A stretch of 41,739 nt of DNA from an uncultured Erysipelotrichaceae bacterium (lineage in GTDB: Bacteria; Bacillota_I; Bacilli_A; RF39; UBA660). Within the stretch, counting starts at the first letter, position 1, and each line of letters starts with the position of its first letter. The notes beneath the pieces were generated by a model. The model did no database searches, had not been told where the DNA came from, and saw nothing but the letters and a program-made list of their open reading frames with translations. A program made the position numbers and the translations under genes. Location of the stretch: positions 1-41,739 of the forward strand of contig CADBLZ010000113.1 in NCBI GenBank assembly GCA_902795675.1, given 5' to 3'. Positions 5,102-25,001 of this stretch are shown piece by piece.

Positions 5102-5177
5102 TGGCGCCCGATGTAGGGCTCGAACCTACGACCTAACGGTTAACAGCCGTGCGCTCTACCAACTGAGCTAATCGGGC
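5102..5177 (-). tRNA. tRNA-Asn (anticodon GTT), CCA encoded
   Basis: The reverse complement reads GCCCGAT-TAGCTCAGTTGGTAGAGC-...CGG-CTGTTAA-CCG...-GTAGGTTCGAGCCCTAC-ATCGGGC-G-CCA. It has a 7-bp acceptor stem, canonical D and T loops, and anticodon loop CU-GUU-AA. Confidence 0.95.
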
Positions 5178-7674: not shown

Positions 7675-8823
7675 CTACTTTGAGAATCCTGTAAATGATA
7701 ATGATAAGCCTCCAATAGTAGCTCCTGAATGATTAGCTTGACCATATTCACCAAATGTGAAAGCAACAATGAATGGAATATCTCCACAAGTATTTTTAAT
7801 AGCAACAAAGTCTTCATCAATTCTGTTACCAATGTGAAGTTTTCTTCCACCACAGTGAACTAAGAATAATGCAGCTGGATCAAAACCTTCTTTTACAGCT
7901 TTGATTGTATCAACAGCACCATTAATTAAACCATCTACGTCATTATTTAATTGAATAATTGCAGTTTTTTCAGCTACTTTAGCACCAACATTGAATGAGT
8001 AATCTGGATTACCAATCATTGGGTGACGTACAGCAGTTAAATCACCTTGTAATGTTTTTACACCTAATGCATAAGGAATAGATGCAGCTAATAAGTTTTG
8101 ACCCATTAGTTCATCAGCATTTAAGCCATTCCATTCAGCATATTTTTTAAGAGCAGGAACACCATCAATTTCAACAATTTGACGATCTCCGTTCATTTTT
8201 GTTACGATACCAACTTTATCAGTTTCTTTATATGCACCTGTGAATACAGTTTTAATATCTCTTGTAGTATAGAATAATGCGATTGCACATCCATCTCCAA
8301 ATGATTTGTCTTCGCAGAAAACTTTCCATTCGCCTACTACAGCATCATCTGCTGCGCTTCCACCAAACATAGGAATTTCACCTAATACATCTTCAATACC
8401 TTTAACGTAGTATTCTTCTTCAGCAGGACTTGCAAACATTGCATAAGCTACTGGAGCAAATTTTTTACCAGCTTGAGCCATTGCTTCTTTAGCTAGTTTA
8501 CGACCTGTTTCACGAGGGTCATTACCTCTTTCAGATGCAGCTACACCTACTTGAAGTTCATTGTCTTCTAGAACCATCATACCAGCAAAACCATCTGGGC
8601 TTGAAATGATTCCTTCTGGTGTCATAATTGCACCACTTGATGTTACACCGATTACCTTAACATCTTTGTTAACAGATTTGATACCTTTAATTACTTCATT
8701 TTGGTCGTATTTAACTGAAGTAAATAAGAAACCAATCTTTGGATTTTTAATACCTTTTAAGGCATTATTAGCAGTTTCTACACCGGCTTGGAAACTGTCT
8801 TTTTGGATACTAGATCCTACCAT
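7675..8823 (-). CDS. FIST-domain (FIST_N + FIST_C) putative sensory protein
   Basis: PKIGFLFTSVKYD...VIGVTSSGAI is FIST_N-like and FTFGEYGQANH...GG is FIST_C-like. The start was moved to the ATG at 8823, which has a perfect AAAGGAGG RBS. The stop lies 9 nt before the ALDH start. Confidence 0.7.
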   Translation of the reverse strand: MVGSSIQKDSFQAGVETANNALKGIKNPKIGFLFTSVKYDQNEVIKGIKSVNKDVKVIGVTSSGAIMTPEGIISSPDGFAGMMVLEDNELQVGVAASERGNDPRETGRKLAKEAMAQAGKKFAPVAYAMFASPAEEEYYVKGIEDVLGEIPMFGGSAADDAVVGEWKVFCEDKSFGDGCAIALFYTTRDIKTVFTGAYKETDKVGIVTKMNGDRQIVEIDGVPALKKYAEWNGLNADELMGQNLLAASIPYALGVKTLQGDLTAVRHPMIGNPDYSFNVGAKVAEKTAIIQLNNDVDGLINGAVDTIKAVKEGFDPAALFLVHCGGRKLHIGNRIDEDFVAIKNTCGDIPFIVAFTFGEYGQANHSGATIGGLSLSFTGFSK

Positions 8824-8906
8824 TGCTTTCAAATAAATTCCTCCTTTTATTCTTATCCGCAACTTCGTTTCGCGTATTTTAGGATTTCCTACAATCCTCT
8901 ATTATT

Positions 8907-8935
8907 AATATATAACATTTTAGTTAAAATTTCAA
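8907..8935 (-). promoter_or_regulatory. Putative promoter of the FIST-ALDH operon
   Basis: Minus strand: TTGAAA (8935-8930), 17 nt, TATATT (8912-8907). It lies immediately downstream of the 8943-8976 terminator. Confidence 0.5.
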
Positions 8936-8942
8936 TGTTTGG

Positions 8943-8976
8943 AGAAAAATAAAAGAAGCAATATTTCTATTGCTTC
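8943..8976 (-). terminator. Strong intrinsic terminator closing the ORF-free unit
   Basis: Minus strand: GAAGCAATA-GAAA-TATTGCTTC (8976-8955), followed by TTTTATTTTT. Confidence 0.75.
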
Positions 8977-10021
8977 CTTTATTATTAAAAAGAGAATATT
9001 AATCATTCCCTTTTCGGGATTTTCGGTTGTCAATAACAACCGTTTAATCCCATTTTAGTTTTAATGCATTTGTACGTTTTAAATTAACTCCCATATAGTC
9101 TAATGAATTAACATACTATTTTGATAGTTTTCATAAACTAGATGACATTAATTCATCTTGGTTCAAATATCCTATTACATTCACGCTTAACTATACTGTT
9201 GTATAAGAGTTCTCCAATTCATCGCTAATTTTTAATTATACGGATCCACACGATATAACATATTGTGCATTGCCAACCGCCAGCTAAGCAGTCAGATATC
9301 ACTCAGTGTTTGGATTGCTTGATTCCCTTCGAAGACAAGTTTAAGGCTCTCCAATTTTTAAACGCGGCCAAGTTATTTTAAATATTTATACTTTCTTTAA
9401 AATCCCAAGAAATTCTCCCTTATATATTATTCATAAAAGAGCTGTTTCAATTCAAGTAAAGTAGTTATAAATATTTGCCATAAAATGAACAAATAATGCA
9501 TAACATACTTGCGATTTTATTATATTTAATAAAATCTGAACTAGTATGAAAGCCAGCTATCATTTTCGAAAGCAATATTACCACCCATATTGGGACAATA
9601 GAAAATGCTAACTATTAATAATATTACCTCGGTATTTGGTAACCCTTTCAGCAATTGTCTATAGGTGATAGATTTAAACCTATAAACAATTGACAGTTTA
9701 CGACTGGAACTTACAATAACTCATAAATTCCCATCAGTTTGAAGCTTATCACTTCTCGCTGGAAATTCGGATTGGGGGCCTAGTAAACAATTACTAGTAT
9801 ACAAATAGACTGCAAATTCTACATGTAACAATCCATTTTTTCACTATTTGCGGTAGCGAAACATAGTCGACTTTGCGGGTCTTCTATAATTTTAATACTA
9901 ATCAACGTCATGCAATTCTACAAACGGAATCTAAATTTCTTTATACTCTCACTGTATTTCAAGTTTATGTTCTATATACATGGTTACTTAATATTGTGTC
10001 GTATCCTGTATACCTCCTACT
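8943..10021 (-). ncRNA. Candidate large (~1.08 kb) structured non-coding RNA, family unrecognised
   Basis: The track shows no ORF of 60 aa or more on either strand from 8863 to 10064. The unit is bounded by a minus-strand promoter (10056-10028) and terminator (8976-8943). It has GC-rich islands and many hairpins, several with G.U pairs that work only in the minus sense. See the findings. Confidence 0.45.
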
Positions 10022-10027
10022 ATATTT

Positions 10028-10056
10028 AGTATAAACATTTGAGCGGCTTTAGTCAA
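10028..10056 (-). promoter_or_regulatory. Near-consensus sigma-A promoter at the head of the ORF-free unit
   Basis: Minus strand: TTGACT (10056-10051), 17 nt, TATACT (10033-10028). It starts 9 nt after the dusB stop codon. Confidence 0.6.
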
Positions 10057-10064
10057 TAGTTAAA

Positions 10065-11048
10065 TTATTGGTTGTCATTTAAAAATTGCTCATATTCATT
10101 TAGAATACCAAATATTTCTTCACTTGTCTTAGCGTGACATATTTGATCCTTGATTTCTTTGCATTTTGGTAAACCTTTTAAGTACCAAGTTATATGGGAT
10201 CTGATTTCTAAAAGAGCTCTTTTTTCATCTTTATCTTCTACTAGTAAATTATAGTGTCTTTTAATCATAGCTATTTTTTCTTGGAATGGTACTATTTGTG
10301 GTTCTTTGCCTGTTTCTAAGTATTCGATACATTCTCTAATTAACCATGGATTACCAAGCACTCCACGGCCAATCATGACAGCATCACAACCAGTTTCTTC
10401 TATCATTCTTTTAGCATCATAACAGGTAACAACATCGCCATTACCAATTACAGGAATAGATACAGCTTCTTTAACTTGTTTAATGATGTTCCAGTCTGCT
10501 TTTCCGCTATAACCTTGAGCTCTTGTTCTACCATGAATAGCAATGGCTTTAGCGCCTGCTTCTTCACATTTTTTAGCTATCTCAACACAGTTAATGTGAT
10601 TTTCATCCCAACCACTTCTCATTTTAACAGTTACAGGTATATCAACTGCTTCAACAACTGCTTTTACAATCTCATAAACTTTATCTGGATTTTTTAATAA
10701 TGCACTACCAGCTTGAGCTTTAACAGCAACTTTAGGTACGGGGCAGCCCATATTGATATCAATAATATCTGGATGCATTTTTTCATTAACAATTTTAGCT
10801 GCAGTAACAAATGATTCTTTATCACTACCAAAGATTTGTTGAGATATAGGTCTTTCCATATCAGTCATTTTTAATAAATCAAACGTTTTGTTGTTACCAT
10901 ATGTTATGGCTTTATCACTAACCATTTCAGCATAGATTAGCCCTGCTCCCATTTCTTTTATTATCTTACGATAAGAAGTATTAGAGATACCAGCCATTGG
11001 CGCTAAAACGATTTGGTTTTTAATATCTACATTACCTATTTTCCACAT
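10065..11048 (-). CDS. dusB: tRNA-dihydrouridine synthase
   Basis: MWKIGNVDIKNQIVLAPMAGISNTSYRKI...AEMVSDKAI aligns with the DusB N-terminus. Also present are DINMGCP, HGRTR and the TIM-barrel FMN-binding layout. Start at the ATG at 11048, 9 nt after AAAGGGA. Confidence 0.9.
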   Translation of the reverse strand: MWKIGNVDIKNQIVLAPMAGISNTSYRKIIKEMGAGLIYAEMVSDKAITYGNNKTFDLLKMTDMERPISQQIFGSDKESFVTAAKIVNEKMHPDIIDINMGCPVPKVAVKAQAGSALLKNPDKVYEIVKAVVEAVDIPVTVKMRSGWDENHINCVEIAKKCEEAGAKAIAIHGRTRAQGYSGKADWNIIKQVKEAVSIPVIGNGDVVTCYDAKRMIEETGCDAVMIGRGVLGNPWLIRECIEYLETGKEPQIVPFQEKIAMIKRHYNLLVEDKDEKRALLEIRSHITWYLKGLPKCKEIKDQICHAKTSEEIFGILNEYEQFLNDNQ

Positions 11049-11115
11049 AATATTCATCCCTTTAAGTCGTAAGTATTATAACAAATATGTTAATAAATGT
11101 ATATTTTTATAAAAA

Positions 11116-24927: not shown

Positions 24928-25001
24928 TGGAGCGGATAGACGGAATCGAACCGACATCAGGAGCTTGGAGGGCTCTTATTCTACCATTAAACTACATCCG
25001 C
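24928..25001 (-). tRNA. tRNA-Gly (UCC)-like, CCA encoded, atypical anticodon loop
   Basis: The reverse complement is GCGGATG-TA-GTTT-AATGGTA-GAAT-A-AGAGC-CCTCCAA-GCTCC-TGAT-GTCGG-TTCGATT-CCGTC-TATCCGC-T-CCA (74 nt). It has the Gly identity set (G1-C72, C2-G71, G3-C70, U73, C35 C36), but C at position 33, A27.C43 and U50.U64. Confidence 0.8.

Follow-up and report, generated by a model that had tools for sequence, protein, structure and literature searches.

A candidate class of kilobase-long structured non-coding RNA encoded next to a FIST gene in uncultured gut Bacilli

To our knowledge, few bacterial non-coding RNAs (ncRNAs) are longer than 500 nt and adopt complex conserved folds. These include the rRNAs, RNase P, tmRNA, group I and group II introns, OLE, GOLLD, ROOL, and HEARO, and each such class known to us turned out to be a ribozyme, the core of a ribonucleoprotein (RNP), or an unexpected RNA-only nanostructure. 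Here we describe a locus that can be compared with these classes. It lies in a 41,739-nt stretch of DNA from an uncultured Erysipelotrichaceae bacterium (contig CADBLZ010000113.1; the whole stretch is called the window below), between dusB and a gene encoding a protein with FIST_N and FIST_C domains. An initial annotation of the window proposed an unclassified large structured RNA at this position, and this proposal is supported by the homologs, the covariation, the absence of an Rfam match, and the absence of protein similarity described here. We are highly confident that a conserved structured ncRNA gene occupies positions 10021-8987 of the minus strand, and we consider it likely that the RNA belongs to a class that has not been described previously. 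Outside the ribosome, few structured bacterial RNAs of comparable size have been seen. The full statement, that this is a new stand-alone large structured ncRNA gene with the mode of action proposed below, is held with moderate confidence.

OLE (RF01071) resembles the window RNA in being a large, ornate, stand-alone RNA gene of anaerobic Bacillota with many invariant nucleotides and a constant protein-coding neighbor, and OLE-type RNAs are present in reduced-genome gut Bacilli. A reduced form of OLE, "variant 2", is common among gut Bacilli of the RF39 type, and the OLE model scores it at 235 bits or more (PMC11332333). Because the OLE model finds variant 2 and gives no match here, the window RNA is distinct from OLE. 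It is also larger (~1,000 nt compared with ~610 nt for OLE) and has a far narrower distribution, and its neighbor is a soluble FIST protein whereas that of OLE is the membrane protein OapA. The gene tables for the retrieved loci show no OapA-like gene, and the window RNA is flanked by FIST_N+FIST_C and Dus genes.

GOLLD (RF01998, ~800 nt) and ROOL (RF03087, ~580 nt) are likewise very large, multi-domain RNAs with long-range helices and pseudoknots that are found in Bacillota and in rumen and gut metagenomes. Both are RNA-only homo-oligomers as determined by cryogenic electron microscopy (cryo-EM) (PMC12286853). They are often carried by prophages and located near tRNAs, whereas the window RNA is chromosomal, syntenic, and present in a single copy per locus, with the nearest tRNA 3.8 kb away; it also has no Rfam match and is absent from phage, plasmid, and IMG/VR collections. 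The raiA motif RNA (~200 nt), which is abundant in Bacillota and Actinomycetota, shares with it independent transcription, a highly structured fold, and presumably abundance, but the window RNA is five times larger, shows no match in sequence or structure, and has a far narrower host range.

Rfam 15 gave no match for the RNA when the whole window was searched at the gathering threshold. A cmscan search of 8700-10300 at E<=10 returned only chance-level matches to the terminator hairpin, and six diverse homolog loci gave no match at E<=0.1, so the Rfam check proposed in the initial annotation came back empty for both the region and its relatives. That annotation had also looked by eye for signatures of RNase P, tmRNA, and group II introns and seen none; the Rfam models agree under permissive filters, as no match was obtained with the models for group I and group II introns, RNase P, tmRNA, signal recognition particle (SRP) RNA, or 6S RNA, and neither flanking exons nor an intron-encoded protein were found. 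Across the whole window, Rfam and ARAGORN match only two tRNAs, Asn-GTT (5102-5177) and Gly-TCC (24928-25001), with no OLE, RNase P, tmRNA, or SRP RNA among the matches in the 41.7 kb. A full-text literature search covering FIST, RF39, ornate and large RNAs, and 2026 preprints on language-model genome mining found no description of a matching RNA.

Homologs and the conserved fold

Gut and rumen metagenomes contain full-length homologs at 36 other loci. These represent ~27 distinct sequences that are 59-67% identical to the window, with RNA lengths of ~900-1,070 nt, and they provide the conservation outside this strain on which the initial annotation had made its claim depend. An nhmmer search with the spacer as the query found a full-length homolog, on the dusB strand, in eight of 80 loci anchored on DusB. 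A metagenome scan with a two-block pattern taken from the most conserved part of the RNA (TTAGCATTTTCT, a gap of 36-60 nt, GCTTTCNTANTAG) matched 22 contigs, 21 of which carry full homologs, and seven further RNA loci were reached through FIST proteins 59-66% identical to that of the window. The DusB and pattern-scan sets form 23 clusters at 97% identity, and the FIST route adds four distinct members. The homologs come from human gut (including Hadza), rabbit, rumen, and deer gut samples. The closest DusB loci are in metagenome-assembled genomes (MAGs) labelled "Candidatus Coprovivens", "uncultured Bacilli", or "Tenericutes", and the DusB protein of the window has no exact match on record. No match to the RNA was found by blastn in 50,697 phage records or in a plasmid collection. 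In IMG/VR, the single locus returned by a 19-mer scan (L081) proved by nhmmer to be a chance match, and a second, two-block scan returned nothing.

A consensus fold was obtained with RNAalifold from 20 representatives (alignment A3, 1,189 columns). It contains 211 base pairs, 103 of which show at least one double compensatory change, and has a covariation term of -29.77. The observed values are compared below with those from shuffled controls and from controls in which the pairing partners were slid.

Cells forming a standard pair: observed 96.1%; shuffled 86.0%; slid partners 35-47%
Pairs with a double change: observed 103; shuffled 60.5 +/- 3.9; slid partners 32-47
Covariation score: observed 0.392; shuffled 0.197; slid partners 0.076-0.099

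None of 500 shuffles reached the observed values for paired cells, double changes, or covariation, and the score is ~4-fold above the slid-partner controls. Covarying pairs, which had been named as a check in the initial annotation, are thus present well above both types of control. The RNA shows what is generally expected of a structured ncRNA, namely a conserved structure supported by compensatory changes beyond controls. On the native strand, the minimum free energy has a z-score of -4.2 relative to dinucleotide shuffles; the decisive evidence beyond chance is the conservation together with the covariation. The alifold energy is -128.65 compared with -48.66 for the reverse complement, and G-U pairs make up 14.5% of the paired cells. 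This asymmetry and the G-U content settle the RNA on the minus strand.

The following elements make up the predicted fold.

9693-10009, minus strand: 5' domain, closed by the 10-bp long-range helix P1 (10009-10000 with 9702-9693)
9652-9692, minus strand: hairpin H8, in which 10 of 13 pairs covary
9567-9631, minus strand: hairpin domain H9-H11, with the invariant 10-nt loop UUAGCAUUUU (9611-9602); 11 of 15 pairs of H9 covary
9086-9554, minus strand: 3' domain of ~470 nt, closed by the 13-bp long-range helix H12 (9554-9541 with 9098-9086)
9183-9365, minus strand: most conserved core of ~185 nt, with 82% mean column identity (alignment A5) and many invariant junction and loop nucleotides
9065-9072, minus strand: invariant 3'-tail CAAAUGCA, complementary to GCAUUU of loop 9611-9602

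Compensatory changes are present in eight of nine pairs of the long-range helix P1. Among the hairpins of the 5' domain, two carry CCGCAAA loops (9878-9872 and 9853-9847), and GAAA-type loops cap others. The loop UUAGCAUUUU is invariant in all 20 aligned sequences, and GUUAGCAUUU is retained in the divergent loci L106 and L110. In the 3' domain, H12 is paired in 100% of the sequences and has one covarying pair (AU in 13, GC in seven), and the long-range helices H14, H15, H20, H21, and H24 are nested inside it. With R1, a covariance model built on the core, the window scores 189.6 bits. Helices that show no variation in the other homologs gain compensatory changes in the more divergent members (CUUG/CAAG to CCUG/CAGG and AUAG/CUAU to UCAG/CUGU); the second of these, in L106, affects the helix that closes the loop UUAGCAUUUU.

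Antiparallel runs that covary but fall outside the nested fold were also sought, which revealed a pseudoknot, confirmed by pair counting, between the loop of H8 (9672-9666) and the linker before H12 (9562-9556). In this pseudoknot 94.2% of cells are paired, double changes occur in five of seven pairs, and the score is 0.444 compared with 0.289 for shuffled and 0.07-0.20 for slid controls. A second pseudoknot is possible between GCAUUU of the 9611-9602 loop and AAAUGC of the 3'-tail (9072-9065), judging by complementarity; covariation is uninformative for this loop-tail pairing because both sides are invariant.

The peripheral elements of the RNA tolerate change, as illustrated by a ~600-nt insertion in L007 and an apparent 5' shortening in L005. 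In L007, a "Ca. Coprovivens" MAG, the insertion (9866-10500) is a tandem repeat of ~14 units of ~45 nt (GGATACATAAACA...TGGTGAAATAG) that occupies a variable apical region of the 3' domain, and the remaining RNA is intact.

The transcription unit and its coding potential

The signals that delimit the RNA gene, and those that lie between it and the FIST gene, are as follows.

10051-10056, minus strand: -35 hexamer TTGACT of the RNA promoter (consensus scan and homolog alignment A2)
10028-10033, minus strand: -10 hexamer TATACT of the RNA promoter, 17 nt from the -35 hexamer (consensus scan and homolog alignment)
10013-10018, minus strand: Shine-Dalgarno (SD)-like AGGAGG at the far 5' end, unpaired in the consensus fold and not followed by a conserved start codon
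8987-10021, minus strand: predicted RNA of ~1,035 nt, with the start placed ~7 nt past the -10 hexamer and the 3' end at the conserved terminator
9016-9051, minus strand: variable hairpin that some lineages carry between core and terminator (alignments A2 and A3)
8987-9013, minus strand: family-wide intrinsic terminator, AAAGGGAAUGAUUAAUAUUCUCUUUUU, with a covarying stem, a conserved GAUUAAU-type loop, and a U-run
8945-8976, minus strand: second terminator hairpin (8976-8955) with a T-run, specific to the lineage of the window
8907-8935, minus strand: FIST promoter-like site, TTGAAA, 17 nt, TATATT (consensus scan)

The promoter was described at these positions in the initial annotation, and the homologs bear it out: 24 of 25 distinct homologs have TTGACT, exactly 17 nt, TATA(C/A)T, 9-10 nt, and A(A/U)GGAG(G/A). 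The 25th homolog, L005 (8083-9224), has a TTGACT/TATACT promoter and GGAGG ~150 nt further into the alignment. Its 5' region is apparently shortened, the first 5' hairpins apparently being gone, and a sequence like the lost 5' segment (CATAAACTT...) is located upstream of its promoter. At the other end of the RNA, the terminator at 9013-8987 has covariation in six of nine stem pairs (helix 31), a counterpart aligned in all 20 sequences of A3, and a strict sequence pattern that matches 23 of 25 homologs. The annotation had missed this conserved 3' end and placed the terminator at the 8976-8955 hairpin, which is real and is followed by a T-run; the second terminator (8976-8945) has no counterpart in the other homologs of alignment A2. 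The minus-strand promoter-to-terminator unit that it described therefore stands, with a conserved RNA of ~1,035 nt rather than ~1,080 nt. The terminator loop contains a palindrome (AUUAAU) that was considered as a kissing-dimer site and rejected, as natural variants disrupt it. Judging from the conserved promoter and terminator, a ~1-kb minus-strand RNA would be expressed.

The alternative that the RNA is a long structured 3' untranslated region (UTR) of dusB was kept as a fallback in the initial annotation, and it fits the window itself, where dusB lacks a terminator and the RNA begins ~40 nt past the dusB stop codon. The relatives refute it. Of 25 homologs, 24 have a TTGACT/TATA(C/A)T promoter dedicated to the RNA; in relatives in which one to three opposite-strand genes separate it from dusB, the RNA is located 1.2-3.5 kb away, and the L104 locus has the RNA in the absence of dusB. 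We regard a dusB 3' UTR as scarcely credible.

The 5' end carries an 8-nt perfect SD-like sequence, AAGGAGGU. In Bacillus, SD-type mRNA stabilizers at the 5' end (STAB-SD of cryIIIA) protect transcripts from the 5' exonuclease activity of RNase J1. The window element resembles these as a strong SD-like sequence that opens the transcript and does not serve translation initiation, and differs from them in heading a non-coding RNA; its function is deduced from its position, its conservation, and its unpaired state. A perfect SD-like sequence could also be expected of a dual-function RNA in which a tiny peptide is made from the 5' end and the remainder is a structured UTR, and in some homologs an AUG does occur 3-4 nt past the SD-like sequence. 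However, the homologs share no start codon at a usable distance, the window has none (GGAGGUAUACAGGAUACG), and no open reading frame (ORF) is conserved in position or frame, which makes this explanation very improbable.

The RNA gene lies in a spacer of 1,232 nt without a gene (8833-10064), bounded by the following neighbors.

7675-8832, minus strand: FIST_N and FIST_C protein gene (Pfam), the constant downstream neighbor of the RNA
10065-11057, minus strand: dusB, encoding a tRNA-dihydrouridine synthase (Pfam Dus), the upstream neighbor here by local synteny only

The spacer bounds assume that the FIST gene starts at TTG 8832, in keeping with 385-aa database clusters. The mechanically called FIST ORF begins at TTG 8862 and encodes 395 aa; the start is probably at 8832, since the database homologs are 385 aa long and a strong SD sequence (AAAGGAGG) is located 7 nt upstream of it. 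The longest start-to-stop ORF on either strand of 8863-10064 is 53 aa, in line with the earlier statement that no ORF of 60 aa or more is present there, and the longest stop-free stretch in the six frames of the spacer is 66 aa. All six frames contain TAA, TAG, and TGA, with 18-32 stops per frame; the earlier reading of two minus-strand frames as closed by all three stops thus extends to both strands. The second-largest spacer of the window measures 297 nt, which agrees with the ~300-nt ceiling given for all other spacers. The initial annotation also described patchy composition, and its G+C counts (28/60, 27/60, and 11/60) are exact, but the patchiness is only mild (24-36% G+C in 200-nt windows) and by itself is weak evidence for an RNA gene.

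Conservation among the homologs consists of invariant blocks of up to 20 nt between indel-rich segments, and because the two alternate in this way the aligned sequences do not have a protein-coding pattern. In 21 representative homologs every frame contains 13-42 stops and no open stretch is conserved. Decay of a gene or mobile element, such as a scar of an iron-type alcohol dehydrogenase (Fe-ADH) gene, an insertion sequence, or a prophage, was examined because a Fe-ADH gene of similar size (1.15 kb) adjoins FIST in distant relatives. When two Fe-ADH proteins were compared by tblastn with 25 RNA sequences, the lowest E was 1.4 and the matches were scattered over both strands with no collinear series, and Pfam gave no match on the ten longest open segments of the spacer. 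The protein remnant that the initial annotation had named as a possible refutation is thus not seen, and neither an open frame nor a collinear frame with protein similarity was found. The stops in every frame of the 21 homologs, together with the lack of matches in the phage, plasmid, and IMG/VR collections, also speak against a remnant, and the invariant blocks, compensatory changes, and conserved promoter and terminator are not expected from neutral decay. A remnant origin is hardly believable.

The FIST neighbor and the limits of the family

The RNA is followed by FIST in all 25 loci that were retrieved without the use of FIST and that reach far enough, and it is located upstream of FIST in all seven loci retrieved through the clade FIST proteins (59-66% identical). 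The outer flanks vary, with dusB or HExxH-protein genes upstream and Aldedh or NrdD downstream. The distance between the RNA and dusB in relatives is 0-3.5 kb, and the gap is filled by one to three tandem opposite-strand genes encoding HExxH proteins; L104 has the RNA and no dusB. These gap genes are tandem paralogs encoding proteins of 353-388 aa (L010:6007-9338, L104:474-3808, L106:2797-3936, and L110:2792-3901). The three gap proteins of L010 have the metalloprotease-type HExxH motifs HEFTH, HEFGH, and HEYGH, and those of L104, L106, and L110 have no Pfam match on record. Their copy number differs between close relatives, and the window has none. In part of the RNA-bearing clade (among L104, L108, and L110), the gene after FIST encodes the anaerobic ribonucleotide reductase NrdD.

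The constant order raises the question of whether the RNA is a giant cis leader, either riboswitch-like or a protein-controlled attenuator, whose terminator at 9013-8987 would gate the FIST operon. It is always on the same strand as FIST and immediately upstream of it, and its intrinsic terminator, which has an unusually conserved loop sequence, is found 100-150 nt before the FIST start. A cis leader, however, lies in a 5' UTR with a coupled expression platform and with no promoter in between, and this arrangement was not found. The separate FIST promoter-like site at 8935-8907 recorded in the initial annotation is in the sequence, and many homologs align TTGAnn, 17-18 nt, and TA(T/A)AAT at this position (A2). 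The window has two serial terminators, the hairpins of variable length between the core and the terminator oppose a fixed antiterminator geometry, and the self-contained, closed architecture of ~1 kb is far larger than that of known leaders. In one subclade (L085, L086, L090, L093, L095, L097, and L099), moreover, a separate gene encoding a small lipoprotein-like protein (MKK..LLL..GCGDKDDDD..) is inserted in a ~570-nt gap between the RNA terminator and FIST, which breaks their direct adjacency. The conserved terminator, the downstream promoter-like site, the variable hairpins, and the lipoprotein gene indicate that the RNA is independent of FIST transcription, and we consider a cis leader improbable.

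A different relationship would be one in which the RNA and FIST form one unit, either as an RNP, much as OLE RNA assembles with OapA into a ribonucleoprotein, or with the RNA responding to or modulating a small-molecule-sensing FIST protein and an aldehyde/alcohol pathway. The order of the two genes holds even where both outer flanks differ, and the RNA is limited to the clade in which FIST is at least 58% identical to that of the window. On the other hand, all carriers are closely related and may simply have inherited the adjacency as synteny; the lipoprotein gene intervenes in one subclade; the FIST proteins are acidic, with no sign of a nucleic-acid-binding surface; and distant FIST genes are in Fe-ADH/Aldedh operons without the RNA. 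We consider a joint RNA-FIST unit unlikely, although it deserves more weight than a cis leader.

FIST homologs at 49-53% identity are encoded in these Fe-ADH/Aldedh operons with short spacers and no RNA. In the distant loci L112, L116, and L117, the FIST genes share operons with aldehyde dehydrogenase, Fe-ADH, or both, and this sharing suggests a role for FIST in aldehyde/alcohol metabolism or its sensing. The core covariance model R1 found no match in 73 related RNA-lacking loci (768 kb). A gene-free spacer of 1,017 nt with 18.5% GC precedes a FIST-Aldedh operon at L114:2985-4000 (also in L115), where FIST is 56% identical to that of the window; the organism is a different one (832-kb contig, 27% GC). 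This spacer was considered as a homolog and rejected, as nhmmer at E<=10 and the core covariance model with filters off were both negative. It begins with TTGTCA, 17 nt, and TATAAT, followed by TAAACTAGAGGAGGACAG, has no Rfam match, and contains a 77-nt unit twice (core ACGTCAAGACCAAAWGGYACGGA) as well as a second direct-repeat pair ~100 nt apart. A long leader or ncRNA of another kind may be encoded there.

Proposed mode of action and significance

Our preferred reading remains a stand-alone structured RNA gene. The RNA would be made strongly and constitutively, given its near-consensus sigma-70-type promoter, and would be stable: by analogy with the Bacillus stabilizers, the unpaired SD-like element at the 5' end would block 5'-to-3' decay by binding the 16S rRNA 3' end, and the terminator hairpin would protect the 3' end. 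It would act in trans through its three-dimensional shape, as a protein scaffold, an RNA-only assembly, or a catalyst. A shape-based action is suggested by the invariant nucleotides, which are mostly in loops and junctions, by the self-closed fold, and by the tolerant peripheral stems. Short antisense pairing and cis-leader action are not part of the proposed mechanism, and a search for antisense targets inside the window returned only short A/T-rich chance matches. Because the RNA is always just upstream of FIST, a functional tie to FIST or its pathway is plausible.

Several points weigh against this reading. Since the homologs are all rather closely related, the covariation signal is in part phylogenetic; the slid-partner control argues that it is not wholly so. 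The family is confined to one narrow clade, FIST homologs of 56% identity or less being without the RNA, and the RNA is therefore not broadly essential. The FIST proteins of the clade are acidic (isoelectric points of 4.6-5.5) and give no support for direct RNA binding. The ends of the transcript are deduced from sequence, and the 5'-stabilizer role and the trans-scaffold mode are drawn by analogy.

With these points in mind, we lean slightly towards a broader view in which the RNA is the founding member of a giant, "ornate" ~1-kb class larger than GOLLD. In this class a precise three-dimensional fold would serve catalysis, self-assembly like that of ROOL and GOLLD, or the core of a FIST-linked RNP, and the hosts would be uncultured gut Bacilli with reduced genomes, in which a trimmed OLE RNA is already present.

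The claim is tempered by the narrow host range and by expression that is read from sequence. Within these bounds, the window RNA enlarges the short list of large bacterial RNAs with a molecule of ~1 kb that is unrelated to the known classes and in which over 200 conserved pairs are combined with nested long-range helices and a pseudoknot, and it offers a large natural RNA newly available to structural biology by cryo-EM. The fixed pairing with the FIST gene gives a concrete handle on its function. The retention of 1 kb of non-coding DNA in reduced genomes implies strong selection, and it indicates unfamiliar biology in abundant, uncultured Bacilli of the gut and rumen.

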